DNA of 64,000 nucleotides, taken from contig JBJMJD010000087.1 in the NCBI GenBank assembly GCA_045806525.1, positions 22,814 through 86,813 of the forward strand, read 5' to 3'. How positions within the stretch are numbered: the stretch's first letter is position 1; every line of letters starts with the position of its first letter. Both the position numbers and the translations under genes were made by a program. This DNA is from Gaiellales bacterium (GTDB taxonomy: Bacteria; Actinomycetota; Thermoleophilia; Gaiellales; JAICJC01). Positions 2,685-52,246 of the stretch are shown piece after piece. Below the pieces are notes generated by a model that was not told the origin of the DNA, made no database searches, and was given only the letters and a program-made list of their open reading frames with translations.

Positions 2685-4634
2685 ATGCGGAAGACACTGA
2701 CCCGGCTGACGCAGCCGATGGTGCGCGAGAACGGCGCGCTGCGCCCGGCCACGTGGGACGAGGCGCTCGATCGAGCCGCGAGCGGTTTCGACGCGGTGCG
2801 CGCGGCCGGCAACCCGAACGCGTTCGGGCTGTTCAGCTGCTCCAAGGCGACCAACGAGGTGAACTTCATCACCCAGAAGTTCACGCGCGTCGTCATGGGC
2901 ACCAACAACATCGACAGCTGCAACCGGACTTGACACGCACCCAGCGTCGTCGGTCTGGCGACGGTGTTCGGGGCCGGGGGCGGTACCAGCTCCTACCGGG
3001 AGGTCGAGGAGACCGATCTGATCTTCCTGTGGGGCTCGAACGCTCGTGAAACCCATCCGATCTTCTTCCATCGCGTGCTGAAGGCTGTGAACAACGGCGC
3101 GCGCCTGTTCGTCGTCGATCCGCGTCGCACCGGCTCGGCCCAGTGGGCCGACACCTGGCTCGGTCTCGACGTGGGCAGCGACGTCGCGCTCTCGAACGCG
3201 ATGGCGCGCGTGATCATCCACGCCGGCCTGCACAACCGCGAGTTCATTGACCGTGCCACCAGCGGCTTCGAGGAGTACGCGGCCAGCGTCGAGCCCTATA
3301 CGCTGGAGCGGGCTGAGCGCGACACGGGCATCCCGGCCGAGGCGATCCGCGAGTCGGCGCTCGCCTATGCCCGTGCCGACCGGGCCATGATCTGCTGGAC
3401 GCTCGGCATCACCGAGCACCACAACGCGGTTGACAACGTGTTCGCGCTGATCAACCTGGCGCTCTTGACCGGCCACGTCGGCCGCTACGGCTCGGGCCTG
3501 AACCCGCTGCGCGGCCAGAACAACGTGCAGGGCGGGGGCGACATGGGCGCGATCCCCAACAAGCTTCCCGGCTTTCAGGACGTCGAGGCGAACCACGAGG
3601 CACGGGCGCGGTTCGAGGCGGCCTGGGACACCACGATCCAGCCGAACTACGGATGGCACTTGACGCAGATGTTCGAGGCGATGGAGCGCGGTGAGCTGCG
3701 CTCGCTCTACGTCGTCGGCGAGAACCCGGCGCAGTCCGAGGCGGACGCCGCCCACACGCTGCACCTGCTCGAGAGCCTCGACCACCTGGTCGTCCAGGAC
3801 ATCTTCCTGACTCGCACGGCCGAACTGGCCGACGTCGTGCTGCCCGCGTCGGTCAGCTGGTGCGAGGCCGAGGGCACGGTCACCAACAGCGAGCGCCGCG
3901 TGCAGCGAGTGCGTAAGGCGCTCGACCCACCCGGCCAGGCCCGCGACGACATCGAGATCGTTGTCGAGATCGCTCGGCGGATGGGCCACGAGTGGAGCTA
4001 CGACGGCCCCGAGGCGGTGTGGACGGAGCTGCGGTCGCTGTCGCCGATGCATCGCGGCATGACGTACCCGCGGCTGGCCGAGCTGGGCGGCATCCAGTGG
4101 CCGTGCTGGGATGAGCAGCACGACGGCGAGCAGTTCCTGCACGCTCGCCTGTGGGACGAGCCGAAGGCAAGCGGCGATCCGGCTCCGTTCAACGTCGTGA
4201 ACAACGTGGCGCCGGTCGATGAGCTGTCGGACGAGTTCCCGATCCGGCTGACGACGGGGCGCCGCCTCGACTCCTACAACACGGGCGTCCAGAGCGGCGG
4301 CTACAGCTCGCCGCTGCGGCGGGGGGAGTCGCTCGATCTGTCGCCCGAGGACGCCGACCGCCTGGCCGTTGCCGACGGGGAGCGCGTGCGCGTCAGCTCG
4401 CGGCGGGGGTCGGTCGAAGCGCCGGTGCGGATCGATCCGACGCTGCGTCCGGGCCTGGCCTTCATGACGCTGCACTTCCCGGACCAGGTGGAGACGAACA
4501 TCCTCACCATCGACGCGACCGACCCGAAGTCGGGCACCGCCGAGTTCAAGGCCAGCGCGATCCGCGTGGACAAGCTCGACGCATCGGCCGCTGAGCAGCA
4601 GACCGCCGCCGGGGCCAACGTGGCGGCCCGCTAG
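2685..4634 (+). CDS. fdhA: Formate dehydrogenase catalytic (Mo/W-bisPGD) subunit, selenocysteine-containing (TGA 2931-2933 read as Sec)
   Basis: ORFs 2685..2933 and 2964..4634 share one frame, separated by one TGA. Context: NNIDSCNRT-TGA-HAPSVVGL. The rest reads as molybdopterin oxidoreductase and C-terminal molydopterin-binding domains. RBS GAGAGGAGG lies upstream of ATG 2685. Confidence 0.85.
2944..2966 (+). promoter_or_regulatory. SECIS-like hairpin downstream of the UGA
   Basis: GUCGUC(2946-2951)/GGCGAC(2957-2962) stem (includes one G-U pair) with apical loop GGUCU. It begins 12 nt after TGA 2931-2933. Confidence 0.55.
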
Positions 4635-4637: not shown

Positions 4638-6494
<1,857 letters not shown>

Positions 6495-7433
6495 GTGAGC
6501 ACCGTACCCGTCACCATCAGCCGCACCGTCGAGCTCGAGATCGACGGCGAGAGCGTCCGCGTCCGGGAGGGCGCCACCATCCTCGACGCCTGCCGCGCGC
6601 AGGGTCGCGATCAGCCGACGCTCTGCTACGGCGACACCCTGACGCCCGTCAACGCCTGTCGTGTGTGCGTGGTCGAGGTCGAGGGCTCGCGGGTGCTGGT
6701 GCCGAGCTGTGCACGCAAGGCGGAGGACGGCATGGTGGTCAGGACCGACACCGAGCGCGTCCGCCACAGCCGCAAGATGGTGCTCGAGTTTCTGGGCTCC
6801 AGCGTCGACCTGACCACGGCGCCGGACGTGGACGGCTGGATGAACGAGTACGACGCCAGGCCCGAGCGCTACGGCCCGCCCGCGCCGCCCGCTGCCGAGG
6901 GCGCGCGCGACCGCGCCCAGGCCGGGCACCACCACGCGGGCGACGGCCAGACGGCCGCGACCGTGGCCCAGCCCGTGAAGGTGGACAACGAGAGCTACAT
7001 CCGCGACTACGCGAAGTGCATCCTCTGCTACAAGTGCGTCGAGGGTTGCGGCACCGACTGGCAGAACACCTTTGCGATCGCGGTGGCCGGACGCGGATTC
7101 GACGCGCGCATCTCCACGGAGTACGCGGCCCCGCTGCCCGACTCGGCATGCGTCTACTGCGGGAACTGCATCGCGGTCTGCCCGACCGGCGCGCTGATGT
7201 TCAAGAGCGAGCACGACATGCGCGAGGACGGCACCTGGGACGAGAGCGAGCAGACGGTGACCGAGACGATCTGCTCGTACTGCGGCGTTGGCTGCAGCCT
7301 GGAGCTGCACGTGCAGGACAACTCGATCGTGAAGGTCACCTCGCCGCTCGATCACGGGATCACGCGCGGGAACCTCTGCGTGAAGGGACGGTTCGGCTAC
7401 CAGTACGTGCAGAACCGCGCCGACGGGGAGTAG
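6495..7433 (+). CDS. Fe-S module of the FDH alpha subunit (2Fe-2S + 4Fe-4S ferredoxin + MopB N-terminal 4Fe-4S), encoded as a separate gene
   Basis: GTG 6495 abuts the stop at 6492-6494. Motifs: CYGDTLTPVNACRVC, CILCYKCVEGC, CVYCGNCIAVCP, CSYCGVGCSLE...CVKGRFGYQYV. Confidence 0.85.
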   Translation: MSTVPVTISRTVELEIDGESVRVREGATILDACRAQGRDQPTLCYGDTLTPVNACRVCVVEVEGSRVLVPSCARKAEDGMVVRTDTERVRHSRKMVLEFLGSSVDLTTAPDVDGWMNEYDARPERYGPPAPPAAEGARDRAQAGHHHAGDGQTAATVAQPVKVDNESYIRDYAKCILCYKCVEGCGTDWQNTFAIAVAGRGFDARISTEYAAPLPDSACVYCGNCIAVCPTGALMFKSEHDMREDGTWDESEQTVTETICSYCGVGCSLELHVQDNSIVKVTSPLDHGITRGNLCVKGRFGYQYVQNRADGE

Positions 7434-7585: not shown

Positions 7586-8614
7586 ATGCCCCGACCCCGA
7601 TCGCTTACAACGCTGCTCGTCGCAGCCACCGCCCTGGCCATGTTCGCGGCCTTCACACCCGGCGCCAGCGGCCAGATCCGTGCGTCAGCCAGCGCCGTCC
7701 CGGCCGCCGTCACCAAAGCGCCGTGGCCGCGGCCGGCAGTCCCCAATGCGATCAGGATCCGGCTCCACGTCGGCACGGACACGCTGCACCTCAAGGATTC
7801 GCGCAACTACATCCTGCGCATGCCCAGGGTCAAGAAGACCGGCCCGCTGTTCATCCGCGGCGGCGGCAACGTCCGCCTGGTCGGCGGCTTCATGTCCACC
7901 AGGGTCAAGGGCCCGAACATCGTGATCATGGACGACGGCGGCACCCGCAACGGGCGCATCGTCCACATCGAGGGTCTGCTGATCAACGGGTCGAGCAGGG
8001 TGCCGTCCGACGGCATCAAGATCAAGGCTCCCCATACGATCGTGCAGCTCGAGCACGACCGCATCGTCGGCCTGCACGGCTCGCTGCGGGGCTACCACGC
8101 CGACGTTGTGCAGCCAGGAGGCGGCGTGAAGGAACTGCTGATCGACGACTTCACCGGCTCGAGCCACTACAACAACTTCTACTTCCGGCGGGAGACCAAC
8201 CCGCTGAAGCCGGCCATCGGGCGGGTCATCATCGAGAACGCCAACATGTTCGGCTACCAGAACCCCGGGACGATTCCGCGCCACACCCTGCGGGGCATCT
8301 CGATCGGCACGCAGCCGAACCCGCCGTCGAACGACAGTTCGGCGCTCAACTGCAACGTCACGAACGCGCTGTGGATGAGGAACTTCTGGGTGCGCCCGCC
8401 GCACGGCGTGCGTCCCGCGCAGTTCGTCTACCCACACGACCGCATGCGCGGCTCCGCGGCCCGCTGCGACTCCGCCTACAAGGCGAGCACGCACAGCGTC
8501 GACTGGCCCCACCTGCGGGCGTCGAACGGTGGCGTCGTGCACGGCGTCGTGCGTGTCGGCGTCCATCGCGCGTTCGTGCGAGCTCGTACCGTGGGACTCC
8601 ACTACCGCGGGTAG
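7586..8614 (+). CDS. Secreted hypothetical protein (signal peptide; possible beta-helix fold)
   Basis: ATG 7586 with AGGAGGA (7575-7582). N-terminus: MPRPRSLTTLLVAATALAMFAAFTPGASG. ORF 6665..8614 upstream of 7586 overlaps the FDH gene and is spurious. Confidence 0.75.
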   Translation: MPRPRSLTTLLVAATALAMFAAFTPGASGQIRASASAVPAAVTKAPWPRPAVPNAIRIRLHVGTDTLHLKDSRNYILRMPRVKKTGPLFIRGGGNVRLVGGFMSTRVKGPNIVIMDDGGTRNGRIVHIEGLLINGSSRVPSDGIKIKAPHTIVQLEHDRIVGLHGSLRGYHADVVQPGGGVKELLIDDFTGSSHYNNFYFRRETNPLKPAIGRVIIENANMFGYQNPGTIPRHTLRGISIGTQPNPPSNDSSALNCNVTNALWMRNFWVRPPHGVRPAQFVYPHDRMRGSAARCDSAYKASTHSVDWPHLRASNGGVVHGVVRVGVHRAFVRARTVGLHYRG

Positions 8615-8665
8615 AGTACGCCTGAGCCCCGAAGGATCGGGGGCCGGCACGTCGCGTGGAGGTTT

Positions 8666-9478
8666 GTGGTGGGGCTTCGAACTCGCCGGAGCACCGGCCG
8701 GGAGCTGCAGCTCGTCCTGGCCAGTCACGAGTGGCCGGCGGGTGGGTCGCTCAACGGCGAGGTGCGGGGCGCCGACGACGCCGTCACCATCACGATCGTG
8801 CGGCTCGAGCGCTCTCCCTCGGCCACGCTGTCGTTCGGCGTCAGCGACTGCGAAGTGGTGCCGGTCGACGGCCGCGCGGAGTTCGAGCTGCCGCTGCCCG
8901 ACGGGCTGCCACCGGGCTGGTCGGGGGAGCGGACGGGGCTCGGGTACGCGATCCGTGCCCTCAGCGGCTCGCGCCGCAACCGCCGGCACGGAGCGGTGCC
9001 GTTGGTGATCTCAGGCGGCGAGCAGGCGATCCACCAGAGCCACCATGCCGACCGCGTGATCGCGTCGCACCCGGGGCGCCGGTTTCACCTGGAGCTGTCC
9101 GACGTCCGACTGCAGGGCGGCGGCCACATCCAGTGCCGCGTGCACGCCGAGCAGGGGCTCGACGAGGGCAGCGTCGTGATCGTTGCCCGCTTCGAGGAGG
9201 CGTGGCGCACCAATCTGCGGATCCGCAACCGCAGGCATCCGCCGCTCTGGCACAGCCGGTCGCTGTGGCAGGAGCAGGCCACGGTCGAGCTGGGCGGGGA
9301 CCGGCGCTGGTATCCGTGCAGCTTCGACATCCCGGTCGGGCTGCCGCCCGCCGTCGAGGCCCGCACGCTCGCCTGGCGGTACGAGATCGACGCACGGCGG
9401 GCGCCGCGGCGGGGAGTGGCGGATCACGCCGCGCTGACGCCCCTGCGCTTCGACCTCGCTCAGCCGCCGTCCGCGTAG
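8666..9478 (+). CDS. Hypothetical two-domain protein, arrestin-N/Spo0M-like (inferred)
   Basis: GTG 8666 with GTGGAGG upstream. An internal duplication ends each half with F-[ED]-[LI]-P...GLPP...Y-x-I-x-A (AEFELPLPDGLPPGWSG...LGYAIRA and CSFDIPVGLPPAVEA...WRYEIDA). Confidence 0.65.
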   Translation: MVGLRTRRSTGRELQLVLASHEWPAGGSLNGEVRGADDAVTITIVRLERSPSATLSFGVSDCEVVPVDGRAEFELPLPDGLPPGWSGERTGLGYAIRALSGSRRNRRHGAVPLVISGGEQAIHQSHHADRVIASHPGRRFHLELSDVRLQGGGHIQCRVHAEQGLDEGSVVIVARFEEAWRTNLRIRNRRHPPLWHSRSLWQEQATVELGGDRRWYPCSFDIPVGLPPAVEARTLAWRYEIDARRAPRRGVADHAALTPLRFDLAQPPSA

Positions 9479-10935
9479 CGCACGATCAGCTGGTCGGTCA
9501 GCCATTCCACCGGCGCTCGGTCGTCGGTCAGCGGGTCGCTGGACGGCGCCTGCGGTTGCAGCCCCTCGGCGAGATCGGCAGCGGGGTCGAGCGCGGGCGC
9601 GGCGGCCGCCAGGCGGGCGCGCAGCCGGGAGGCCGAGACCGGCCGCGTGAACCCGGCCACGATCTCGTTGAAGCCACCGGCCCGCCAGCGGTAGACCCTG
9701 GGGAAGACCGTGGCCATGGTGCCCGCGATGGCGCTGGGCAGCCGCTCGTCGCCGGGGATGGTGCCGACGTTCGCCATCACCATCCCGCCCGGCCGCAGCC
9801 GCTCGTCCGCCAGCCTCCAGAACTCCTGCGTGGTCAGGTAGAACGGGATGTACGGCTGGCGGAACGCGTCCAGGAAGATGGCGTCGTAGCGAGTCGCGTG
9901 GGTGTCCAGGTAGGGTCGGCCGTCGGCCGTGGCCACGCGCACACGCGGGTTCGATGCCAGGCCGAAGTAGCGGCGCCCGATGGCGGTGACCTCGGGGTCG
10001 AGCTCGATGCCGAGCACGTTCGTGGCGGGCCAGAAGGTGCCGTAGGCGCGGCCGACGGTGCCACCCGCGTACCCGATCATCGCCAGCGACTCGAACCCGC
10101 GACCGTGCATCACGGGCGCCAGCAGGAACTGGTCCCAGTAGCCGCCGGTGAGAACGCGGTTGCGGTGCCAGACCGAGTGCTCCGCCCAGCCCTCGTTCAG
10201 GTGCAGCACGCGCCCCCCGTCGGCCGTCGACTGCACCTGGATGAACTGGTATGCGGACTCGCCCTCCCAGATCACACCCGCCCCTGGCTTCACCAGCCCG
10301 GGCGGCACCAGCGCCAGCGCCACCGCCGCGGCCGGTGCCAGCACGTATCGCCAGCCGAGCGCCGGCGTCGCCGCCAGCGCCAGCACGGCGGCCGTGGCCA
10401 GCATGGTGCGGCGAGTGCCGATCAGCGGGATCAGCAGCACCACCGGCAGGAAGGTGCCGAGGATCGACCCGGCGGTGGACAGCGCGTACAGCCGCCCGGC
10501 GATCTCGCCGGCCCGCTCGACCGAGTCAACGGCGAGTCGCACCGCGAACGGTGACACCATCCCAAGCAGCGTGATCGGTACCGAGAACAGCGCCATGGAG
10601 GCGAAGAACGAGCCCAGGAAGGCGCCCACCGACGCTTCCGCGAATGCGCCCACCGCGGCCGAGAGCAGCGGCTCGGACACGAACGGGATCACGGCGATCG
10701 CCATCGCAGCGCACACGATCAGCCGGCACATGTAGGGCAGGCTGGGGTGGCGGTCGGCCAGCCGGCCACCCCAGAAGTAGCCAACCGAGAGGTAGATCAG
10801 GATCAGGCCGATGATGTTCGCCCAGATCAGGATCGAGGCTCCGAAGAAGGGCGCCAGCAGCCGCGAGGCGCACATCTCGGTGGCCATCGTGCCTGCGCCG
10901 GCTACGAACACCAGCGGGTAGAGGAGTCGGTTCAC
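9460..10935 (-). CDS. Fused membrane domain + spermidine synthase-like protein
   Basis: 491 aa. The N-terminal ~200 aa are polytopic membrane. The C-terminal half is a spermidine-synthase/SAM-MTase fold (GYAGGTVGRAY...LGIELDPEV...YDAIFLDAF). Confidence 0.85.
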   Translation of the reverse strand: MNRLLYPLVFVAGAGTMATEMCASRLLAPFFGASILIWANIIGLILIYLSVGYFWGGRLADRHPSLPYMCRLIVCAAMAIAVIPFVSEPLLSAAVGAFAEASVGAFLGSFFASMALFSVPITLLGMVSPFAVRLAVDSVERAGEIAGRLYALSTAGSILGTFLPVVLLIPLIGTRRTMLATAAVLALAATPALGWRYVLAPAAAVALALVPPGLVKPGAGVIWEGESAYQFIQVQSTADGGRVLHLNEGWAEHSVWHRNRVLTGGYWDQFLLAPVMHGRGFESLAMIGYAGGTVGRAYGTFWPATNVLGIELDPEVTAIGRRYFGLASNPRVRVATADGRPYLDTHATRYDAIFLDAFRQPYIPFYLTTQEFWRLADERLRPGGMVMANVGTIPGDERLPSAIAGTMATVFPRVYRWRAGGFNEIVAGFTRPVSASRLRARLAAAAPALDPAADLAEGLQPQAPSSDPLTDDRAPVEWLTDQLIVRYADGG

Positions 10936-20895: not shown

Positions 20896-22143
20896 TCACG
20901 CCGGCGTGACCCGCACCGGCATGGTCTTGTAGGCGTTGGTGAAGTTCGAGTGCATGCGGCTGGCGGGCGCGGTCGGTTCGACCGCGGAGATGCGCGGCAA
21001 CAGCTCCTCGAACATGATCCGGGTCTCCAGCTTGGCCAGATGCGCGCCCAGGCAGAAGTGGGGGCCGCCGCGGCCGAACGTGACGTGGTTGTTGGGCTTG
21101 CGGGTGATGTCGAACCGCAGCGGATCGGGGAACTGCTGCTCGTCGTAGTTGGCCGACACCAGCCACGTGACGACCTTGTCGCCCTCGCGGATGCGGACGT
21201 CGTGCAGCTCGGTGTCGGCCGTTGCCGTGCGCCGGAAGTGGATCACCGGCGAGCTGTAGCGCATGATCTCCTCGGTCGCGCTGCCCATCAGGTCGGGCTG
21301 CTCCTGCAGCCGCCGCATCGCCTCCGGGTTGTCCATCAGCGCCTGCATGCCGTGGGCGATCGACTGGCGCGTGGTCTCGTTGCCGGCCACCACCAGCAGC
21401 AGGAACATCGTGTCGAACTCCTGCTCGGTCAGCCGGTTTCCGTCCTCGTCCTCCCACATCACCAGCTTCGAGACGAGGTCGTCGGTGGGATGCTCGCGGC
21501 GCTCGCGGGCGATCTGGTGCCCGTAGTTGTAGAGCTCCATCGCGTAGGGGCTGCGGAACGGGTAGAGCCGGTACTTTGCGCTCTCCGGGCTGGCCGGGTG
21601 CAGGCCGCCGAGGTCGGGATCGGTGTTGCCGATCATCTTGTCGCCCCAGGCGATCAGCCGCTCGTCGTCGGACAGCGGCACACCCAGAATCCGGCACAGC
21701 ACCTGGATCGGCAGCTGCTTGGCGACCTCCTCGACGAAGTCGAACTCGCCTCGGGGCAGCGACTCGTCCAGGATCTGGCGGGTGAGATCGCGCAGCAGCT
21801 GCTCATAGGCGGCCACCGCCCGCGGGGTGAAGCCCTTGTTCACGATCGCGCGCAGGCTCGAGTGCTTGGGCGGGTCGGTGTCCAGCATCGACTTGCGGGC
21901 CTCGATCTGGTCGGGGTCGAGGTCCTCGAGCGCCGTCGCACCGGTCTCCGACGAGAAGGTGCGCCAGTCCTTCAGCACCGCCACCACGTCGTCGTAGCGG
22001 GTGATGCACCAGAACCCCTTGCCGTACTCCCAGTCGTACCAGTGCACGGGCGCCTGGCGGCGCATCAGCGTGAACGTCTCGTGCGGGATCCGCTCCGCAA
22101 AGGCGTCGTTGTCGAGGTAGACATCGGCCAGGGTGTGGGTCAT
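20896..22143 (-). CDS. Cytochrome P450
   Basis: 415 aa. Heme loop FGRGGPHFCLGAHLA. AGNETT I-helix motif. EEIMRY (ExxR). Confidence 0.9.
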   Translation of the reverse strand: MTHTLADVYLDNDAFAERIPHETFTLMRRQAPVHWYDWEYGKGFWCITRYDDVVAVLKDWRTFSSETGATALEDLDPDQIEARKSMLDTDPPKHSSLRAIVNKGFTPRAVAAYEQLLRDLTRQILDESLPRGEFDFVEEVAKQLPIQVLCRILGVPLSDDERLIAWGDKMIGNTDPDLGGLHPASPESAKYRLYPFRSPYAMELYNYGHQIARERREHPTDDLVSKLVMWEDEDGNRLTEQEFDTMFLLLVVAGNETTRQSIAHGMQALMDNPEAMRRLQEQPDLMGSATEEIMRYSSPVIHFRRTATADTELHDVRIREGDKVVTWLVSANYDEQQFPDPLRFDITRKPNNHVTFGRGGPHFCLGAHLAKLETRIMFEELLPRISAVEPTAPASRMHSNFTNAYKTMPVRVTPA

Positions 22144-23588
22144 GCCGTGCTCCCATCCAGGATCTGCAGCGTCTTCAGGTCGGAGTAGAAGTCGAGCGCG
22201 TAGTCGCCGCCCTCGCGGCCGATGCCGCTGATGCCTACCCCGCCGAAGGGCGCCGTCAGGTCGCGCACCAGGAAGGTGTTGACCCAGACGGTGCCGGCGC
22301 GGACCGCCCGCCCCACCCGCTCGGCCCGCTCCCGCGTGCCGGTGTAGACGATCGCCGACAGGCCGTAGCGGGTGGAGTTGGCCAGCTCGACGGCCTCCCG
22401 CTCGTCGCGAAACGTCTGGAACGTCAGCACGGGGCCGAACACCTCCCGCTGCACCACCTCGGAGTCGTTGGACCGCGGCTCGATCAGCGTCGGCTCGTAC
22501 CAGAGGCCGCCCATCTCCGGCTGCCTGCCGCCGCGCACAATCCTGTCGCCGTTTGCCCGCGCCCGCTCGACGAAGCCCTCGACGCGGGCCAGGTGGTCGG
22601 GATGGATCAGCGGCGAGACGGTGGTGCGGTCGTCACGCGGGTCGCCCAGCACCTGGGCGTCGACGCCGGCGTGGAACCGCTCCAGGAAGGCGTCGCGGAC
22701 CGACTCCTCGACCAGCAGACGGGTGCCGGCCAGGCACACCTGCCCGGCGTCGTCGTACTGGCCGGCGGCCTTGGCGGCGGCCGCGTCCAGGTCGGAGTCG
22801 GCGAACACGATCAGCGGCCCCTTGCCGCCCAGCTCGGCCGTGAACGGGACGATGTTGGCTGCGGCGGCAAGGCCGATCGAGCGCCCGGTCTCGGGTGAGC
22901 CGGTGAAGCTGATGCGGCGCAGGCCGGTGCTCGAGACCAGCGCTGCGCCGGCCTCCTCACCGATGCCCTGGACGACGTTGAACACGCCGGGCGGGAATCC
23001 GGCCTCGGCCGTCAGGTCGGCCAGCAGCGAGCACGAAAGCGGCGCCCACTCCGGTGGCTTCAGGATCACCGTGCAGCCGGCGGCCAGACCCGGCGCCGTT
23101 TTCCAGGTGGACAGCATGAACGGCGCGTTCCAGGGCGTGATAACGGCGGCCGCGCCGCTGGGCATCCGGATCACGCGGTTCTGGGTCGAGTTCGAGCTCC
23201 ACACGCGCTCCTGGTAGGTGGCGGACAGGTCGGCATAGGCGCGGAAGTTGCGCGCGCCGCGGGCGATCACGCGCGCCTTCAGCGAGCGCTCCAGCATCGC
23301 CATGTCCAGGCACTCGACCGTGGCGATGCGGTCGATGTTCGCGTCGATCAGCTCGGCCAGGCGGTGCAGGTGGGCGGCGCGGCCCTCCGCCCCCAGCGCC
23401 GCCCAGTCCGGGAAGGCGGCGCGGGCCGCGTCCACGGCCTGATCGACGGCCTTCTGGTCGCCGCGGGCGACCTCGGCGATCACGCGCTGGTCGATCGGCG
23501 AGATCACCTCGAACGTGTCGTCACCGTCGACCCGCTGGCCGCCGATGAAGTGGCCCGACGGGACGGTGATGTTCGCGACCGTGCTCAC
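22140..23588 (-). CDS. NAD-dependent aldehyde dehydrogenase (HpaE / hydroxymuconic-semialdehyde dehydrogenase-like)
   Basis: GTG start with GTGA overlap. ITPWNAPFMLSTWKTAPGLAAGCTVILKPPEW, ELGGKGP, and GQVCLAGTR catalytic Cys. Confidence 0.9.
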   Translation of the reverse strand: MSTVANITVPSGHFIGGQRVDGDDTFEVISPIDQRVIAEVARGDQKAVDQAVDAARAAFPDWAALGAEGRAAHLHRLAELIDANIDRIATVECLDMAMLERSLKARVIARGARNFRAYADLSATYQERVWSSNSTQNRVIRMPSGAAAVITPWNAPFMLSTWKTAPGLAAGCTVILKPPEWAPLSCSLLADLTAEAGFPPGVFNVVQGIGEEAGAALVSSTGLRRISFTGSPETGRSIGLAAAANIVPFTAELGGKGPLIVFADSDLDAAAAKAAGQYDDAGQVCLAGTRLLVEESVRDAFLERFHAGVDAQVLGDPRDDRTTVSPLIHPDHLARVEGFVERARANGDRIVRGGRQPEMGGLWYEPTLIEPRSNDSEVVQREVFGPVLTFQTFRDEREAVELANSTRYGLSAIVYTGTRERAERVGRAVRAGTVWVNTFLVRDLTAPFGGVGISGIGREGGDYALDFYSDLKTLQILDGSTA

Positions 23589-24361
23589 GTTCGGAACTCC
23601 ATCAGGCCAAGGTCGAGCACGCTGACGCCGCCGTCGACAGGGATCACGGTGCCGTTGACGTAGGCGGCCGCCGGCGAGAGCAGCCAGGCCACCAGCCCGG
23701 CCACCTCGTCGGCCTCACCGGCGCGGGGGATGGGCATGTGGGCGTGCGCCAGCCGGTAGGCGCCCTCGCGGTCGGTGCCGCGGAGCCCGGCCAGCTCGTC
23801 CATCGCGCCGTCGGCCATGGGGGTGCGGATCCAGCCCGGGCAGACCGCGTTTGCGCGCACACCGCGCGGGCCAAAGTCGACGGCGATCGACTGCACGAGC
23901 ATGTTCAGGCCGGCTTTGGACGTGCAGTAGGCCGATGAGTCGGGCCCGGCTCGCAGGCCGGCCAGCGAGGAGACCGCGACCAGGGAGCCGCCGCGCCGCT
24001 CGAGGTGGGGGAGGGCCGCGCGTGCGGTCAGGAAGGCGCCGGTGAGGTTGCTGCGCAGCACCGCGTCCCAGCTCTCCGGCGTCTGGTCGACGACGCTGCC
24101 CGAGTGCGACACGCCCGCGCAGTAGACCAATGCGTCGAGGCCGCCCAGCTCCTCGACGGCCGTGCGGACGGCGGTCTCGGCGCCGGCAGGGTCGCCGCAG
24201 TCGCCCGCCACCGCGATGCCGCCGATCTCGGCCGCCACCTGCGCCAGCGGATCCAGCCGGCGCCCGGTCACGACCACCCCGTAGCCGTCGGCCGCGAGCC
24301 GCCGCGCGACGGCCGCACCGATGCCGGTGCCGCCACCGCTGACCAGCGCCGCCGCGCTCAT
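23585..24361 (-). CDS. Short-chain dehydrogenase/reductase
   Basis: ATG 24361 (ATGA overlap). VSGGGTGIG cofactor loop. Catalytic YCTSK. Confidence 0.85.
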   Translation of the reverse strand: MSAAALVSGGGTGIGAAVARRLAADGYGVVVTGRRLDPLAQVAAEIGGIAVAGDCGDPAGAETAVRTAVEELGGLDALVYCAGVSHSGSVVDQTPESWDAVLRSNLTGAFLTARAALPHLERRGGSLVAVSSLAGLRAGPDSSAYCTSKAGLNMLVQSIAVDFGPRGVRANAVCPGWIRTPMADGAMDELAGLRGTDREGAYRLAHAHMPIPRAGEADEVAGLVAWLLSPAAAYVNGTVIPVDGGVSVLDLGLMEFRT

Positions 24362-25146
24362 TCCGGAATCGTCTCGAGGTCGTCGACGGTATAGGCGAAC
24401 TGGAATCGGAAGCCCTTGCCGACCCTCAGCGGCGCCAGCGTGTCGTGCTCCTCGCCCGGCGCGGGGTACAGCGCCAGCGTGGCCGCTCCCTCGTGAATCT
24501 GGGAGGCCGAGCGGTTGCTGGAGCGGGCCCGCACCAGCTCGTCGACCGCCGGGTCGCCCCACCGGCCCGCCGCCAGGCGCGGGAAGTGGCGGTGGTTGAC
24601 CAGGGGCGGGTCGTTGTGCGTGGGGCCGGCTTCGCTCAGCCGGTCGGGACTGACCGTGCCCTCGGCCAGCAGCCGGCCGTTGGCGGTGAGCGTGCCGGCG
24701 AAGATACGGCCCTCGGCCCGGCAGTCAAGGCCAAAGCTGCGCGTCATGTGCACCTCGCCAAGCTTCTTTGGGAACCCCTGGATCCAGCCCCGGATCAGGG
24801 CGAAGTCGCGGTCGACCCAGATGTAGGGACAGGTGGTGACGTGCTCGTCTCCCAGCATCGCGTTGGCGACGATGAAGAACTCCTTGTACTGGCTGCGCAC
24901 CGGGTCGAGCAGCTCCTCGCCCGAGTCGGAGCAGGACTGCCAGTCGACGAACAGGGCGGCGCAGCGGCCGGGGTCGTCGGCGAAGGCGGTCAGCCGCGCG
25001 GGCAGCACGGCGGCCACCGCGTCCGGGTCGGCCCAGAACTCGATCACCAGGAAGTCGCCGACGTAGTGCCATGGCGGCGATGGGATGATGGACGCGCCGC
25101 CGTGCGGGGAGAGCGGCAGCGAGTATCCGCGCGGCCCGTCGCTCAT
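24358..25146 (-). CDS. Acetoacetate decarboxylase (ADC)-family protein
   Basis: ATG 25146 (ATGA overlap). 262 aa: PPWHYVGDFLVIEFWADP...YKEFFIVANA...IWVDRDFALIRGWIQGFPKKLG, typical of the ADC beta-cone family. Confidence 0.8.
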   Translation of the reverse strand: MSDGPRGYSLPLSPHGGASIIPSPPWHYVGDFLVIEFWADPDAVAAVLPARLTAFADDPGRCAALFVDWQSCSDSGEELLDPVRSQYKEFFIVANAMLGDEHVTTCPYIWVDRDFALIRGWIQGFPKKLGEVHMTRSFGLDCRAEGRIFAGTLTANGRLLAEGTVSPDRLSEAGPTHNDPPLVNHRHFPRLAAGRWGDPAVDELVRARSSNRSASQIHEGAATLALYPAPGEEHDTLAPLRVGKGFRFQFAYTVDDLETIPE

Positions 25147-25427
25147 GGCCGCTCCAGGGAGCCGACCACCTCGTACATGACCGCGTCGTCGGCCGGCGAC
25201 ACCTCGATGCCGAGCCGCTCGCGCGCCTCCTCGATCTTCGCCATCGCGGCGTCCGCGGCATCGGCGTCCTGGAACACGGTCACCGACACCGCCGAGCCGT
25301 CCTCGGCCAGGCAGTGGTAGAGAGCGGTCACACCCTCCACGCCGCGCAACGCCTCGATCACCCACTCGGAGCGGTCGAGACCGAGGTCACCGCGTCCCGC
25401 CTCGAAGCGGGCGACGCGGACGATCAC
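25143..25427 (-). CDS. Small ABM/dimeric alpha-beta-barrel-like protein
   Basis: GTG 25427 (GTGA overlap with the hpaB stop). 94 aa: VIVRVARFEA...VSVTVFQDADAADAAMAKIEEA. The family assignment is tentative. Confidence 0.55.
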   Translation of the reverse strand: MIVRVARFEAGRGDLGLDRSEWVIEALRGVEGVTALYHCLAEDGSAVSVTVFQDADAADAAMAKIEEARERLGIEVSPADDAVMYEVVGSLERP

Positions 25428-26893
25428 GAGGGCTCCTCCAGGAACTGCTCGACCAGCGACTCCGGGAACGACTTGTCGGCGATCTTGTAGGCCAGCGCCG
25501 TCATGCGGTAGGAGTCGGACAGGTAGAACCGCTCGTAGAGCTCGCCGCGACCGCCCAGGTCGCTGCCGATGTAGTCCCAGGCCAGGCGGAACAGGCGGAT
25601 GCGGCGCTCGGCGTCGGCACCGGCTGCCTGGTAGTACTTCGCGATCTCGTCGGCCAGCGGGCCGTCCATGTCGGCCCGCGAGGGCGTGGCCATGAAGCCA
25701 CCGCCGCCGATCAGCTGCAGCAGCTCGTTCACATAGGGCAGCCATTTCGGCATCTCGCCGCGCAGCGCCAGGAACGGGCGGTCGTCCGGATACCAGACGC
25801 CGCCCTCGTCCAGGGCCGAGCCGGCCTCCGCCGAGATCAGGCCGGAGCGGGTCAGCTCGGCCATGTTCCAGACCTGGCCGAGCTTCTCCTGGATGTGGTC
25901 GAAGCGCACCACGCCGGTGGTGTTGGCAAGCATGTGGCCGAGCCCGAGCGCGAACGACAGCTTCACGTAGGCACGCGTGAAGGCCTGGTGCATGATGTGT
26001 CCGCGCCAGCCGGTGTCGGTGATCACCTCCGAGTAGGCCTCGGTGTCACCGCACAGGAACAGCCTGTCCTTCGGCACCTCGACGTTGTCGAAGATGACGA
26101 CGGCGTCCATCTCGTCGAAGCGCGACGACAGCGGGTAGTCAAACGCCGAACGCTGCTTCGAGTAGCTGTCGCGGCAGATGAAGCGCAGGCCGGGCGTGCC
26201 CATCGGCAGCGCGAAGGCCAGCGCGTAGTCGCCGTCCTGGGGGCGGATGTCGGAGCCGGGGTAGATGGTCAGCTCGTCGGCGTAGGGGGCCAGCGTGGCC
26301 AGCATGCGCGCCCCGCGCACGGTGATGTGGTTCTCGGTCTCACCCACCTTGTGCAGGGCGACCTCGCCCGCCGCCTGCTCGGCCTCCGGCTTGCTGCGGT
26401 CGACCTGCGGGTTCATGATCGAGTGGGTGGTGGAGAGGTCGCGGTCGCGCATAAGCTTCTGGTAGGCGACCAGATTGGCGGCCCCCTGCTCGTTGCCGCG
26501 GCGCGCCCAGACGTCGGCGCGGCCGGCGAAGCAGGCGAAGGTGACGTTCAGGTAGTCGGGGGTGCGGCCCATCATGCCGGCGGTGAGGGCGGCGGTCAGC
26601 TCGATGGCGCGGCGGCGGCGCTCGAGGTCTTCGCGGCTGCGCGGGATCAGGTGGGTGACGTTGACCAGGCGCCCGTCGTCGGGCGAGGCCGCCAGCATCT
26701 CGTCGGCGTGCTGGTGTTGCAGGTCGTAGACGCGGGCCATGGTGCGCGCCGCCTCGGCCAGCTGCGGGTGCTCGAGCGGGTGGGTGATCTTCTCGCCGTT
26801 CAGCCAGATCTCGCGGGCGTCGCCGCGCAGGCCGTCCAGGAACTGCTGGCCGGTGCGGGCGGCTGTCGGCGTCTGCTGCTGCGCGGTTGCCAT
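25424..26893 (-). CDS. hpaB: 4-hydroxyphenylacetate 3-monooxygenase, oxygenase component family
   Basis: 489 aa with HpaB-family hallmarks along its length (GRTPDYLN, THSIMNPQVDRSK, RFDEMDAVVIFDNVEVP, ERFYLSDSYRM). Confidence 0.9.
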   Translation of the reverse strand: MATAQQQTPTAARTGQQFLDGLRGDAREIWLNGEKITHPLEHPQLAEAARTMARVYDLQHQHADEMLAASPDDGRLVNVTHLIPRSREDLERRRRAIELTAALTAGMMGRTPDYLNVTFACFAGRADVWARRGNEQGAANLVAYQKLMRDRDLSTTHSIMNPQVDRSKPEAEQAAGEVALHKVGETENHITVRGARMLATLAPYADELTIYPGSDIRPQDGDYALAFALPMGTPGLRFICRDSYSKQRSAFDYPLSSRFDEMDAVVIFDNVEVPKDRLFLCGDTEAYSEVITDTGWRGHIMHQAFTRAYVKLSFALGLGHMLANTTGVVRFDHIQEKLGQVWNMAELTRSGLISAEAGSALDEGGVWYPDDRPFLALRGEMPKWLPYVNELLQLIGGGGFMATPSRADMDGPLADEIAKYYQAAGADAERRIRLFRLAWDYIGSDLGGRGELYERFYLSDSYRMTALAYKIADKSFPESLVEQFLEEPS

Positions 26894-27822
26894 CAGGCCT
26901 CCTGGTGTGTCAGCGGGGGAAGCTGCTCTCCCTTCGCGAGCAGGCCGTCGCGCTCGTAGCGGACGGCCTCCTCGTCGAATCGGAAGTATGACCGTGGCGG
27001 CAGGATGCCCCAGACGTTGCTCGAGTGGGGGGTGTCGTCCCAGTCACGCGGCTCGTGATCGGGCTCGAGTTGCTCCATGTCGCAGTAGCACTCCACGATC
27101 AGCTGCTCGTCGGGGACGCGAACGTACCCGCACAGGTTCTGGGCCAGCGCGTGGCGCAGGGGGCCCCAGACCAGCCAGCGGCCGTGCTGGCCGAGGTGGT
27201 CGAACACCACCCGCAGCTCGCCCCAGTCGACGTACTCGAACGCGAAATGGTGGAAGTGGGCTACGTCGTGCTGCACGAGCGCCATAGAGTGGTGGTCGGA
27301 GTTGATCGAGAGCCAGTTGCCGGCGCCCAGCAGGCGGTCGGATATGCGCATGCCCAGCACGTCGGTGTAGAAGGAGGTGGCGCGGTCGAGGTCGGTGGTG
27401 AGCACGTTCACGTGGCCGAGCTTGCGCGGGTGCAGCCCCGGCAGCGTCTCGGTCGACCGTGCCACCGGCGGCCGGCGGTCGTCCTCCTCGCGGAACGGCA
27501 TCAGCTCGATGCCATAGCCGTCGGGGTCTGCGAAGTGGAGGCCCCCGTCGTGGTGCTCGTAGTCGACGCCGTGGTGCTCGAGCTGGGCGGCCGCGTGCGC
27601 CAGCGTGCAGCTGCGGCGAAGCTCCCAGCCGGTGTGGTCGTGGCCGGGAGGTTCGGCGCCGACCAGCTGGAGCGAGTAGGGCTCGTAGGCGCAGCGCAGG
27701 AAGGCGTGGTGGCCGACCCGCTCCACCTCGGTCAGGCCGAACTGGATCGCCCAGCGGTGCTCGGCCTCGTCCAGGTTGGCGACCCGCAGCGCCACGTGAT
27801 CGATGCGGCGGATCTCGATCAT
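26893..27822 (-). CDS. Type I extradiol ring-cleavage dioxygenase (catechol/homoprotocatechuate 2,3-dioxygenase-like)
   Basis: Two VOC modules. IDHVALRV..., LGHVNVLT..., HHFAFEY metal-ligand region. Confidence 0.85.
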   Translation of the reverse strand: MIEIRRIDHVALRVANLDEAEHRWAIQFGLTEVERVGHHAFLRCAYEPYSLQLVGAEPPGHDHTGWELRRSCTLAHAAAQLEHHGVDYEHHDGGLHFADPDGYGIELMPFREEDDRRPPVARSTETLPGLHPRKLGHVNVLTTDLDRATSFYTDVLGMRISDRLLGAGNWLSINSDHHSMALVQHDVAHFHHFAFEYVDWGELRVVFDHLGQHGRWLVWGPLRHALAQNLCGYVRVPDEQLIVECYCDMEQLEPDHEPRDWDDTPHSSNVWGILPPRSYFRFDEEAVRYERDGLLAKGEQLPPLTHQEA

Positions 27823-28694
27823 GATCGCGTCACTCCCTCCTGTGCCGCTCGCTCCGCCTCGTCCTCGGGCATGGCCAGCGCGACGTGCAGCGTGTTGGCC
27901 GAGACCTGCAGCTGGTCGCCCGGCCCGGACAGGTCGACGTCCCAGTCCACCACCGTGTTCGAGAGCCGGCCGAGGCCCGTCACCTCGACCTCGACCACGT
28001 CGCCCGGCTCCATCGGCCGCGAGTGGGCGGGGGTGCCCGAGAGCAGGACGTCGCCGGGCATCAGGGTGATCACACGGCAGAGGTCGGCCAGCAGGTAGGA
28101 GACGGGCCAGATCAGGTCGGCCGCTGAGCCCTGCTGTGCTACCTCGCCGTTCAGATAGGTGCGGATCTCGAAGTCGGTGGGGTCGAACTGGTCGGCGGGC
28201 ACCAGCTCGGGGCCGATCGGGCAGAACCCGTCCTGGCCCTTGACCCGCAGCATCGAGCCGCGGTCGGCGTGGCGGAAGTCGTGCAGGCCGACGTCGTTCG
28301 CGCAGGCATAGCCGGCGACGTGGTCGAGCGCGTCCGCCTCGGGCACGCCCTGCATGGCGCGTCCGATCACGACGGCCAGCTCGCCCTCGTAGTTGAGGAA
28401 GCGGGCGCCCCGCGGGCGGCGCAGCTCGCCGCGGTGGCCGTTCAGGGTGGTGGGCGGCTTCATGAAGTAGGAGGGCTCTGGCGGCGTGCGAGCGGCGTAC
28501 TCCTCGACGCGGCTACGGTAGGTGAGGTGGGTGGCGATGATCTTGGTCGGCTCGACCGGCGCCAGGAAGTGCGCGGTCGCCTCGTCCAGGCGGTCGCCGG
28601 AGGCGAGGACGACGCTGCCGCCGTCCAGCCGGCCCCAGCTGGGAGACCCCTCGACCAGCACCCGAACCCGTCGCTCAGACACGATTGGATACAA
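27819..28694 (-). CDS. Fumarylacetoacetate hydrolase family protein (HpaG-like isomerase/decarboxylase)
   Basis: YEGELAVVIG, VKGQDGFCPIGP, GDVLLSGTP. The ORF-track start 28694 is TTG. GTG 28682 (VSERRVRVLV) is an alternative and could be leaderless. Confidence 0.85.
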   Translation of the reverse strand: MYPIVSERRVRVLVEGSPSWGRLDGGSVVLASGDRLDEATAHFLAPVEPTKIIATHLTYRSRVEEYAARTPPEPSYFMKPPTTLNGHRGELRRPRGARFLNYEGELAVVIGRAMQGVPEADALDHVAGYACANDVGLHDFRHADRGSMLRVKGQDGFCPIGPELVPADQFDPTDFEIRTYLNGEVAQQGSAADLIWPVSYLLADLCRVITLMPGDVLLSGTPAHSRPMEPGDVVEVEVTGLGRLSNTVVDWDVDLSGPGDQLQVSANTLHVALAMPEDEAERAAQEGVTRS

Positions 28695-28719
28695 TATGCG
28701 CTTTGCTGCTGGACGGCAA
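28691..28719 (-). promoter_or_regulatory. Candidate sigma70-type promoter of the 12-gene operon
   Basis: The minus strand reads TTGCCG(28719-28714)-17 nt-TATTGT(28696-28691). GTG 28682 lies 8 nt after the -10 element. Confidence 0.35.
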
Positions 28720-28761
28720 GCCCGGCTCCCCGGTCTGGTGGACGCGGCTACCTGACCGAGT

Positions 28762-29367
28762 CTATCCCTGCGTCGGGGCGAGCTCGTCGCGCCAGTGGCG
28801 CAGGGCGGCGACGCCGGTTTCGACCTGGTCGCGGGTGAGGTCGTGGCGGGTGACGTTGGGAATGCGCTGCAGCGGGCCGGTCAGCGGGTCCTCGCCCGCG
28901 GCGGCGTTCAGCAGCATGCGCAGCGGCAGGTTGTGGCTGACCACCAGCACCACCGGCCCTGGCAGCCTCAGCACGCGGCGCCACCCCGCCAGGAAACGGG
29001 TGGTGGCGTCGAGTGCGCTCTCGCCTCCGGGGGGTGCCGCGGTCAGTGGGTTGTCGCGAAGCCAGGTCGTGTAGGCGGATACGGGGCCGTCCTCGAACGG
29101 GCCGACGACGATCTCGGCGAGCTGGTCGACGACGTGGGTCGAAACGTGGCGGTCAGCCACGAGCGCCGCCGCGGTCAGGCGTGTTCGCAGGGACGGCGCG
29201 ACGACGAGCGCGTCGATCTGCTCCGACGCGAGTTCGCGGCCAAGGCCGCGGGCGGCGCGCTCACCGGGGGCGGTCAGGCCCACCTCGACGGTCGAGTCGG
29301 GGTTCATACGGCCCTGAGCGCTGTACGGCGTCTCGGCGTGGCGGACGAGGATGAAGCTGTTGACCAT
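28762..29367 (-). CDS. Histidine phosphatase (phosphoglycerate mutase-like) family protein
   Basis: MVNSFILVRHAETPYS (RHxxT motif) ...VVSHNLPLR. ATG 29385 is an alternative start. Confidence 0.75.
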   Translation of the reverse strand: MVNSFILVRHAETPYSAQGRMNPDSTVEVGLTAPGERAARGLGRELASEQIDALVVAPSLRTRLTAAALVADRHVSTHVVDQLAEIVVGPFEDGPVSAYTTWLRDNPLTAAPPGGESALDATTRFLAGWRRVLRLPGPVVLVVSHNLPLRMLLNAAAGEDPLTGPLQRIPNVTRHDLTRDQVETGVAALRHWRDELAPTQG

Positions 29368-29462
29368 GCACTCATCGTGTCGCATGGGTCGGCTGTCCGT
29401 CCAGCGGGGCGTGGCCGGCGCGTGCTGGATATGGTTGGGCGGTGACCGAGCAGGAGGACGAA

Positions 29463-29828
29463 ATGGACCAGGCGACGCGGCACGAGCGCGGCCTCGCGCG
29501 GCTGAAGGAGCTGGGCGACGAGCCCGGCGGGGACGCCTTCATCGAGCGGATGGGCAGCCCGATGGGCGACTGGCTGGTGGACTGGGTGTTCGGCGAGGTG
29601 CATACACGCGACGGGCTGACGGCGCGCGAGCGGGAGCTGATCATCGTGGCGGTGCTGACGGCGATCGGCAGCTCGGACCCCCAGGTCGCAGCGCACATCC
29701 GGGCGCTGCGGGCGATCGACGTGCCCTGGCAGGAGATCGAGGAGACGATCTTGCAGACGGCGCCCTACGCGGGCATCCCGCGGGCGATCAACGCGCTCAA
29801 GGTGCTGCGGACGGAGCAGGGACGATGA
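29463..29828 (+). CDS. Carboxymuconolactone decarboxylase (CMD) family protein
   Basis: ATG 29463 with AGGAGG (29452-29457) 5 nt upstream. LTARERELIIVAVLTAIG...ETILQTAPYAGIPRAINAL. GTG 29442 is an alternative start. Confidence 0.8.
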   Translation: MDQATRHERGLARLKELGDEPGGDAFIERMGSPMGDWLVDWVFGEVHTRDGLTARERELIIVAVLTAIGSSDPQVAAHIRALRAIDVPWQEIEETILQTAPYAGIPRAINALKVLRTEQGR

Positions 29829-30655
29829 GAGCCGTGCGGTTCCTGGATCCGTCGGGCGACGTCAAGCTGGGTCGGCTCGACGGCGAGGTGATCTTCGATG
29901 CGGGGCCGGCCGGGCCGCGCGGGTTCGTGCCCAGCGAGGAGGGGTGGCGGAGGATCGCGGATGCCTCCGGGCTGGCGCATCCGATCGAAGACGTGCGGCT
30001 GCTGCACCCGACCGAGCCGGTGAAGCTGCTGGCGATCGGCCTCAACTACCGCGACCACGCGGAGGAGTCGGAGCTCGAGATCCCGGACGTGCCGGTCGTG
30101 TTTGCCAAGTGGACAACATGCCTGATCGGACACCGCCAGACGATCGTGGTGCCGCTCGAGGAGACGCGGCCGGACTACGAGGGAGAGGTGGCGGTGGTGC
30201 TGGGGCGCGACGTTTACCGGGCCGACGAGGCGACGGCGCGGGCGGCGGTGGGCGGCATCACGGCCTTCCACGACGTGTCCGGTCGGCGCGCACAGCTGGA
30301 GACGCCGCTGCGGCAGTTCACACTGGGCAAGAGCTTCGACACGTTCGGGCCGATGGGGCCGTGCGTGGCGTCGGCCGAGGGCCTCGACCTGGCCGATATC
30401 GACGTCTCGACGAAGGTGAACGGTGAGCAGCGGCAGTCGTCCAACACGCGCAACCTGATCTTCTCGGTGGTGGAGCTGATCGTCTACCTGTCGCGGGGCA
30501 TGGCGCTGCAGGCAGGCGACGTGCTGGTCACGGGCACGCCGGCCGGGGTCGGCGACTCGAGGGTGCCGCCGGTGTACCTGCAGGAGGGCGACGTGGTCGA
30601 CGTCACCGTGGACGGGGTGGGGACGCTCTCGAACCCGGTCACGCTCGAGCGCTGA
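29825..30655 (+). CDS. Fumarylacetoacetate hydrolase family protein
   Basis: ATG 29825 (ATGA overlap with the CMD stop). YEGEVAVVLG, LGKSFDTFGPMGP, GDVLVTGTPAGVG. Confidence 0.85.
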   Translation: MRAVRFLDPSGDVKLGRLDGEVIFDAGPAGPRGFVPSEEGWRRIADASGLAHPIEDVRLLHPTEPVKLLAIGLNYRDHAEESELEIPDVPVVFAKWTTCLIGHRQTIVVPLEETRPDYEGEVAVVLGRDVYRADEATARAAVGGITAFHDVSGRRAQLETPLRQFTLGKSFDTFGPMGPCVASAEGLDLADIDVSTKVNGEQRQSSNTRNLIFSVVELIVYLSRGMALQAGDVLVTGTPAGVGDSRVPPVYLQEGDVVDVTVDGVGTLSNPVTLER

Positions 30656-39167: not shown

Positions 39168-39251
39168 TGCGGATGAGAGGACTTGAACCTCCACGACCTT
39201 ACGGCCACACGGACCTGAACCGTGCGCGTCTACCAATTCCGCCACATCCGC
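39168..39251 (-). tRNA. tRNA-Leu (anticodon CAG)
   Basis: The reverse complement is GCGGATGTGGCGGAATTGGTAGACGCGCACGGTTCAGGTCCGTGTGGCCGTAAGGTCGTGGAGGTTCAAGTCCTCTCATCCGCA. Acceptor stem GCGGATG/CATCCGC; anticodon stem CACGG/CCGTG with loop TTCAGGT; long variable arm; TTCAAGT T-loop. CCA is not encoded. Confidence 0.9.
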
Positions 39252-47556: not shown

Positions 47557-47599
47557 CGGGCACGATGGCGTTGATGGGCACGGCTACGATCAGGGCAGG

Positions 47600-49459: not shown

Positions 49460-49460
49460 G

Positions 49461-50111: not shown

Positions 50112-50174
50112 GGCCGTCAGCCTACCGTGGCCCGCGGGCCCGCCCACCACGCACACGCTAACCTCGACCGTGGA

Positions 50175-52047: not shown

Positions 52048-52056
52048 AATATCCCC

Positions 52057-52246
52057 CAACTGGGTGTTACCCGGAAAACGGGTGCCAGCGATCATAGGTA
52101 GACAAGGCTTGTGGGTGACCTGGCATCCCTTGCGCGACAGACCTTAGACCCCATCTGACGCTGCCCGATCTTGCCGGTCACCCACAAGCTGAGGGCTCCA
52201 ATCCCGACCCCCACGGCCGCCAAGTGGATACACTGGCGGCCGTTTT
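52057..52246 (+). promoter_or_regulatory. Structured leader upstream of gap (three hairpins; the last is terminator-like)
   Basis: H1 is 52060-52088 (CTGG..TACCCG-gaaaa-CGGGTG..CCAG). H2 has a perfect 14-bp stem GCTTGTGGGTGACC(52107-52120)/GGTCACCCACAAGC(52176-52189) plus 4 more bp. H3 is ACGGCCGCCA(52213-52222)/TGGCGGCCGT(52234-52243), running into TTTT(52243-52246), 25 nt before the gap ATG. A possible -10 TAAAAT lies at 52045-52050. Confidence 0.4.

Follow-up and report, generated by a model that had tools for sequence, protein, structure and literature searches.

An in-frame UGA in a formate dehydrogenase gene of a Gaiellales-like genome is very probably a selenocysteine codon

We analyzed a stretch of 64,000 nucleotides from contig JBJMJD010000087.1 of a Gaiellales bacterium, referred to here as the window, and in it a gene interrupted by an in-frame TGA. 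The gene and the features described with it are on the plus strand. A sequence-only reading of the window had noted two open reading frames (ORFs), 2685–2933 and 2964–4634, that share one frame and are parted only by this TGA. It had proposed that they are one gene for a formate dehydrogenase (FDH) with selenocysteine (Sec). The arrangement was confirmed at every coordinate. The frame opens with ATG at 2685. A Shine-Dalgarno sequence, GGAGG (2671–2675), can be read 9 nt before it. The in-frame TGA occupies 2931–2933, beyond which the frame continues unshifted to the stop TAG at 4632–4634. The whole comprises 649 sense codons, or 650 with the stop. The read-through product reads ...NNIDSCNRT-[TGA]-HAPSVVGLATVFG..., and the first possible restart after the TGA is GTG at 2964, 30 nt downstream. 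The GC content of the window is 71%. At third codon positions it is 0.93 (GC3) in ORF 2685–2933 and 0.92 in ORF 2964–4634, a coding composition in both. The two ORFs form a single gene, here called fdhA.

Read through, the 649-residue product of fdhA matches only two Pfam families, PF00384 Molybdopterin (2.5e-73) and PF01568 Molydop_binding (6.2e-26). A phmmer search of the PDB returned proteins of the FdhF/FdsA kind at 1e-150 to 1e-126. These include the FdhF subunit of hydrogen-dependent CO2 reductase (1e-150), F420-dependent FDH (1.6e-150), E. coli FDH-H (1aa6, 2e-140) and NAD-linked FdsA/Fdh1A (about 1e-127 to 1e-129). Residues 7–645 match residues 308–948 of R. capsulatus FdsA. In the alignments, the TGA codon (residue 83) falls opposite the catalytic Cys of 7qv7_S and the X (selenocysteine) of 9t1s_L. 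This supports the earlier proposal that the TGA stands at the Sec/Cys metal ligand of an FDH. The catalytic His84 comes directly after it, and the motif LRGQNNVQG with the catalytic Arg is found at residues 275–283. The corresponding catalytic residues of E. coli FdhF are Sec140, His141 and Arg333. The protein has what defines an FDH with a Mo/W-bis-pyranopterin guanine dinucleotide (bisPGD) cofactor: both molybdopterin domains, a Sec or Cys ligand followed by His, and the catalytic Arg. Judged by its sequence, it is the catalytic (metallopterin) subunit of an FdhF/FdsA-type FDH. The ORF covers positions 52–672 of the TIGR01591 profile at 658.3 bits, which is under the cut-off of 666.25 for this curated equivalog.

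Two further genes follow on the same strand. fdhB (4638–6494) encodes a NuoE-NuoF fusion of 618 residues, identified by Pfam, PDB matches and the NCBIfam NuoF and NuoE models. It contains 2Fe-2S thioredoxin-like, FMN/NAD(H)-binding 51K and 4Fe-4S domains. fdhC (6495–7433) encodes a NuoG-like Fe-S subunit of 312 residues, identified by Pfam, its match to FdsA and TIGR01591. It contains 2Fe-2S and 4Fe-4S dicluster domains and a C-terminal Molybdop_Fe4S4 ‘FS0’ domain with four cysteines (CxxCxxxC...C). Residues 9–308 of FdhC match residues 22–306 of R. capsulatus FdsA, and the subunit corresponds to the detached N-terminal third of a conventional FdsA. The start of FdhA coincides with the point at which the Fe4S4 domain stops in other FDHs. 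Positions 1–50 of TIGR01591 are found in residues 258–307 of FdhC (52.2 bits) and the rest in FdhA. The Fe4S4 (FS0) domain is therefore absent from the chain that carries the Mo domain and is encoded two genes downstream, which the sequence-only reading had not noted. A clean gene fission has divided the alpha subunit and placed its Mo half ahead of the Fe-S half, and by sequence its function appears to be retained over the two genes. In the orthologous loci described below, the NuoE-NuoF gene is syntenic in nearly all, and the order Mo, NuoE-NuoF, Fe-S is kept in nearly all of those that extend far enough. Together with the UGA, the split accounts for the failure of automatic annotation at this locus. 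Neither fdhD nor any molybdenum-cofactor gene is found with the operon.

We also considered whether an unsplit version of the gene might lie concealed upstream, and rejected this. Some orthologues have long upstream frames, but these show no Fe-S homology and have a non-coding composition, with GC3 at or below the GC content of second positions in most. At 6492–6497, the NuoE-NuoF gene ends in TGA and the Fe-S gene begins with GTG immediately after it, without a change of frame, and read-through there would fuse the two proteins. The in-frame layout is not conserved. In one orthologous locus (L002) the two genes are in different frames, which suggests a stop/start overlap. The TGA at 6492 was for this reason rejected as a Sec site, and the junction looks like ordinary translational coupling.

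Relatives of fdhA were taken from a species-representative collection with one genome per species. At least 595 of 600 scanned stretches encode a relative. The best 80 of these at least 595, each from another species and with 70–96% protein identity, served as the orthologue set. The taxon labels are those of metagenome-assembled genomes (MAGs) and are not all reliable. By these labels, 7 loci belong to Gaiellales/Gaiella, 13 to other Thermoleophilia, 24 to other Actinomycetota, 18 to Chloroflexota, 5 to Acidobacteriota and 4 to Dormibacterota, and 9 carry other labels. The codon aligned to 2931–2933 is TGA in all 80 loci. The frame is open on both sides of it in 79. The exception is L047 (2043 onward, on a 6.6 kb contig), in which the downstream ORF has 432 codons compared to about 558; a frameshift or assembly error is possible there. 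The closest sequence comes from a second Gaiellales MAG and is 96% identical, and the gene in the window is free of lesions.

These data bear on whether the gene is intact. A pseudogene, or a broken or mis-assembled gene in which the TGA is a sequencing error for TGC or TGT, would be consistent with the splitting of the gene by ORF callers. It would also be consistent with the best 120 matches in a catalogue of 5.8 billion proteins, which are all 545–558 residues long (about 83–86% of the query) and cut at the same codon. However, the same TGA is present in 80 independently assembled genomes of different species, and coding composition and amino-acid conservation are found on both sides of it. 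Such conservation is not expected of an error or of a decaying gene. This effectively refutes the explanation, to which we assign a negligible probability, and supports the earlier view of a single 649-codon coding sequence.

The ten codons from the TGA to the first restart, codons 84–93, decide whether two proteins are made. If the UGA were a true stop, a peptide of 82 residues and a protein of 556 residues starting at GTG 2964 could be two separate polypeptides, and gene callers do use this GTG. The codons in between, encoding HAPSVVGLAT, are nevertheless conserved at the amino-acid level. They show synonymous changes, and Ser87 alternates between AGC and TCN codons. The conservation and the serine switch indicate that the stretch is translated in this frame, which rules out the readings as pseudogene, as assembly error and as two polypeptides. 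The catalytic His sits in these ten codons, and the metal ligand would be lost from a restarted protein. No conserved ribosome-binding requirement is seen there, and a restart would leave the frozen synonymous sites in the hairpin loop described below unexplained. Two polypeptides are thus very improbable.

A catalogue search with the first 150 residues gave a similar picture. Most of the best 120 matches are fragments of about 82–85 residues that end at the TGA codon. Homologues with Cys were also found in this N-terminal search, for example in Streptomyces (...SCNRTCHAPSVAGL...). Cys homologues among the group of entries P0121, P0124 and P0128–P0130 read ...CNRTCHAPSVAGL..., one of them labelled Streptomyces. 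Entries P0121 and P0124 have W at the Sec position, probably from a translation table that reads TGA as Trp.

The sequence-only reading had also described a hairpin after the TGA, and its arms, loop and spacing were all confirmed. The arms are GUCGUC (2946–2951) and GGCGAC (2957–2962), the loop is GGUCU (2952–2956), and the hairpin begins 12 nt past the TGA. The 6-bp helix is the minimum-free-energy and centroid structure, and the loop begins 18 nt after the UGA. The bSECISearch program looks for an apical loop about 16–37 nt from the UGA, with G among the first loop positions; the hairpin agrees with both. UGA, 12-nt spacer, helix and apical loop together make up a putative minimal selenocysteine insertion sequence (SECIS) at 2931–2962.

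Comparison across the family revealed strong constraint on this element. We examined 162 codon columns in which the amino acid is invariant and at least four-fold degenerate, and their median synonymous entropy is 1.35 bits. Only two of them fall below 0.2 bits, codon 90 (GGT in 81 of 81 sequences) and codon 91 (CTG in 81 of 81). These two codons form the apical loop. GGT accounts for only 11% of the Gly codons in the family genes.

The helix is also conserved as a paired structure. Pair 2948/2960 is C-G in 70 sequences, G-C in 11 and broken in none. The swap involves synonymous third positions of Val88 and Ala92 (70 GTC/GCG, 11 GTG/GCC). Two other pairs vary on one side only, with changes compatible with wobble pairing: 2950/2958 (U-G in 54, C-G in 27) and 2947/2961 (U-A in 73, U-G in 7). 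The helix is broken in one sequence only (L079). In total, 91.8% of the helix cells are paired. In each of 500 shuffles, the paired fraction, the count of cells changed on both sides and the covariation score all stayed below the observed values. Most slid registers fall to 16–34% paired, and slides by –3 and +3 give 67% and 80%. About six changes, as gains or losses, account for the compensatory swap on a neighbour-joining tree. One flip is recent, between L064 and L043, whose proteins are 93% identical. A seventh base pair, 2945/2963, was rejected because 42 of the 77 distinct sequences leave it unpaired. RNAalifold also suggested pairs in the lower stem; these are invariant, thus uninformative, and were set aside. 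Across the family, then, the sequences indicate that the hairpin behaves as a SECIS element under RNA-level selection.

The E. coli fdhF element provides a reference. Its SECIS sequence was found at 100% in fdhF of 5419 of 5426 E. coli genomes. The position of GGUCUG relative to the U of the UGA, +21 to +26, is the same in the window gene and in E. coli fdhF, which bears out the earlier statement that the E. coli element presents a GGUC-type loop at a similar spacing. The G and U of this loop are the contacts of E. coli SelB. The shared offset therefore puts the SelB-contacted bases in the same place as in E. coli.

Genes for Sec incorporation are found beside the FDH gene in several relatives. 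ARAGORN placed a tRNA-Sec (selC) within 10 kb upstream of it in 10 loci. Rfam confirmed the tRNA in the three loci tested, at about 71–72 bits compared to a gathering score of 47. Nine loci have selA and selB beside the FDH gene. selC, selA and selB all adjoin the orthologue in L017, L019, L039, L040, L050–52 and L066, whereas L058 has selA-selB only, and L070 and L073 have the tRNA-Sec only, near the end of the locus. L017 is a Solirubrobacterales MAG, from the same class (Thermoleophilia) as the closest relatives of the window. In L017 (6186–8816), L019 (411–3864) and L050 (1671–5274), the genes immediately before the FDH gene are tRNA-Sec, selA and selB, located upstream of it on the other strand. 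selC is directly upstream of selA in these three, as reported for mycobacteria.

The host lineage does not argue against Sec. The earlier impression that high-GC actinobacteria seldom use it is out of date. Of 244 Mycobacterium genomes, about 40% have the Sec machinery and one Sec-FDH (PMC13449736), and Actinomycetospora chiangmaiensis has three Sec-FDHs (PMC7176365). Five selenoproteins are listed for Rubrobacter xylanophilus, a deep-branching actinobacterium (PMC1794560). Among bacterial selenoproteins, Sec-FDH is the most widespread, present in 822 organisms (PMC5029168). Given Mycobacterium, Rubrobacter and the wide spread of Sec-FDH, Sec in a high-GC actinobacterial lineage is unsurprising.

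Several observations weigh against a Sec codon at 2931–2933. The folding energy of the hairpin does not differ from that of dinucleotide shuffles (z = +0.12 and –0.19), showing no excess stability. The hairpin alone is therefore not evidence, and its significance comes from the family comparison rather than from single-sequence folding. Rfam searches at the gathering score found no SECIS in the whole window or in four loci. At E ≤ 10, the only hit was SECIS_3 (RF01989), with E = 7.3. It has the right register, with UGAC at its 5′ end and a GUCU loop, but its score is 11.4 bits compared to a gathering score of 63, and no locus tested reaches the threshold. The covariance-model check that had been suggested for this site was thus negative. 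In E. coli fdhF the hairpin loop is 4 nt long (GGUC), and there is a bulged U that E. coli SelB requires. The window hairpin differs in having a 5-nt loop (GGUCU) on a continuous 6-bp helix, with no counterpart of the bulged U. No selA, selB, selD or tRNA-Sec was found in the 64 kb window by ARAGORN, Rfam, tblastn with SelA and SelB of relatives, or Pfam on all substantial ORFs. The Pfam search of these ORFs returned no SelA, SelB, SelD/AIRS or molybdenum-cofactor genes, and the sole tRNA of the window is a tRNA-Leu(CAG) at 39168–39251. Finally, Sec in the product of this organism is predicted from its sequence.

The lack of sel genes in the window and the W in P0121 and P0124 could instead point to decoding of the UGA as another residue, by near-cognate suppression or a reassigned code, or to a recent relic left after loss of the Sec machinery. 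A reassigned code was rejected. Of the window's 37 confident genes, 27 end in TGA, among them fdhB, and the code is therefore standard. The W in these two entries most likely comes from translation with the wrong table. A relic does not fit well with the lesion-free gene and its 96% identical counterpart in the second Gaiellales MAG, and the conserved SECIS and the adjacent selC, selA and selB of relatives point specifically to Sec. We regard this group of explanations as unlikely, though less remote than those involving a broken gene or a true stop. Sec insertion at the UGA, as first proposed, is supported by the alignment to the catalytic ligand, the TGA in 80 of 80 loci, the constraint and covariation of the hairpin RNA, the Cys homologues and the sel genes next to the gene in relatives.

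The closest described system is FDH3 (FdhA3/FdhB3/FdhC3) of A. chiangmaiensis DSM 45062 (Rohwerder et al. 2020, PMC7176365, Table 1, Suppl. Fig. S2/S4). Its alpha subunit has 640 residues with Sec at U80 and is homologous only to the metallopterin C-terminal domain (PMC7176365). The partners are a 614-residue NuoE/NuoF fusion and a separate 316-residue Fe-S protein like the FdsA N-terminal domain, and the enzyme is predicted to be cytoplasmic and NAD+-reducing (PMC7176365). Proteomics detected the FDH3 subunits, at levels about two to three times higher on 2-hydroxyisobutyrate, and formate removal by A. chiangmaiensis is selenium dependent (PMC7176365). The proteins of the window have 649, 618 and 312 residues, with U83, and in both systems all three are encoded together. 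The window operon combines a metallopterin-only alpha subunit with an N-proximal Sec, a NuoE-NuoF fusion and a separate NuoG-like subunit in adjacent genes, as FDH3 does. This likeness rests on the described lengths, domains and Sec position. The systems differ in their hosts, Pseudonocardiales for FDH3 and a Gaiellales-like genome for the window, and selA/selB of A. chiangmaiensis are in another FDH cluster of its genome. We had considered the split and permuted architecture to be undescribed; this was rejected, since the supplement of PMC7176365 describes it. In all, 2685–4634 very probably encodes one selenoprotein, the catalytic subunit of a cytoplasmic NAD+-linked FDH of the FDH3 type.

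Other FDHs share parts of this arrangement. E. coli FdhF has the same ...U-H-x-P-S-V... active site. Unlike FdhA, it has the Fe4S4 domain in the same chain and no NuoEF partner. FdsABG of R. capsulatus and Cupriavidus necator and Fdh1AB of Methylorubrum extorquens consist of the same NuoG-like, Mo/W, NuoE and NuoF modules. The FdsA matches of the Fe-S protein (22–306) and the Mo protein (308–948) are contiguous, and NuoE and NuoF are fused in M. extorquens (7e5z_B) as in the window. These enzymes have Cys where the window has Sec. They have an undivided alpha subunit of about 960–995 residues, whereas that of the window is split at about FdsA residue 307 with the Mo half first. Mycobacterial Sec-FDHs resemble the window system in the high-GC actinobacterial host and in UGA-Sec in an FDH, and selC is directly upstream of selA-selB there (PMC13449736), as in L017, L019 and L050. 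The FDH genes in the mycobacterial synteny figure are labelled FDH-N/O-type (fdoG) (PMC13449736), and the comparison made here covers the Sec machinery.

By analogy with E. coli, the UGA at 2931–2933 would be decoded as selenocysteine during translation. SelB-GTP with Sec-tRNA(Sec) would dock on the mRNA hairpin at 2946–2962, whose apical GGUCU loop would present G and U at the E. coli fdhF distance from the UGA. Homology to the FdsABG and Fdh1AB structures suggests that Sec83 would ligate the Mo or W of the bis-guanine-dinucleotide cofactor, and that His84 and the Arg of LRGQNNVQG would complete the active site. Electrons from formate may then cross a subunit interface to the FS0 [4Fe-4S] cluster on the separate polypeptide encoded by 6495–7433. 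They would run along the Fe-S chain of this protein to the flavin mononucleotide of the NuoE-NuoF fusion (4638–6494) and reduce NAD+.

Several other regions of the window were noted. The region directly downstream of the operon (7586–10935) contains a predicted secreted protein of 342 residues and then a 270-residue ORF with no Pfam or NCBIfam match. A fused MFS/spermidine-synthase-like gene is on the minus strand at 9460–10935. A cluster at 20896–30655 resembles aromatic-compound catabolism. It contains genes for a cytochrome P450, an aldehyde dehydrogenase, a short-chain dehydrogenase, an acetoacetate-decarboxylase-like protein, an HpaB-type hydroxylase and a glyoxalase/dioxygenase, and two FAA-hydrolase-family genes. 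A conserved housekeeping block at 47450–56632 is in keeping with an Actinomycetota chromosome. It contains uvrC, whiA, gap, pgk, a CofD-domain gene and a gene for a phosphoglycerate mutase of the iPGM type. A second same-frame ORF pair, 61200–62068 with TGA at 61526–61528, was rejected as a selenoprotein and represents two genes. The downstream ORF has its own ATG at 61535 and a signal-peptide-like N-terminus (MIGRRAQGLVAVTVALAGMAVLLAAG).

Our analysis corrects the annotation of this locus. The two ORFs, named ‘YjgC-like molybdopterin oxidoreductase’ by JGI in relatives, are very probably one selenoprotein gene, and with the two downstream genes they make up a complete FDH that is predicted to be NAD-linked. 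No new mechanism is revealed: no bacterial selenoprotein is more widespread than Sec-FDH (PMC5029168), and the architecture has been described (PMC7176365). The organism would need selenium for formate oxidation and would carry sel genes elsewhere in its genome. The enzyme family is large, spread over soil phyla and systematically truncated in public protein catalogues, and it is apparently always Sec-dependent among the 80 closest species. A broader proposal is tentative, and we think it somewhat less probable than its opposite: that the FDH3 type is the main soluble FDH of aerobic soil Actinomycetota, Chloroflexota, Dormibacterota and Acidobacteriota, with a split alpha subunit, the gene order Mo-EF-FeS and an obligate Sec. 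Catalogues would overlook nearly all of it because callers cut the gene at the UGA and the split keeps its score under the Fdh-alpha cut-off. If this is true, soil formate oxidation would be broadly selenium dependent, and the SECIS of the FDH3 type would be a distinct and highly uniform class outside the current Rfam models.

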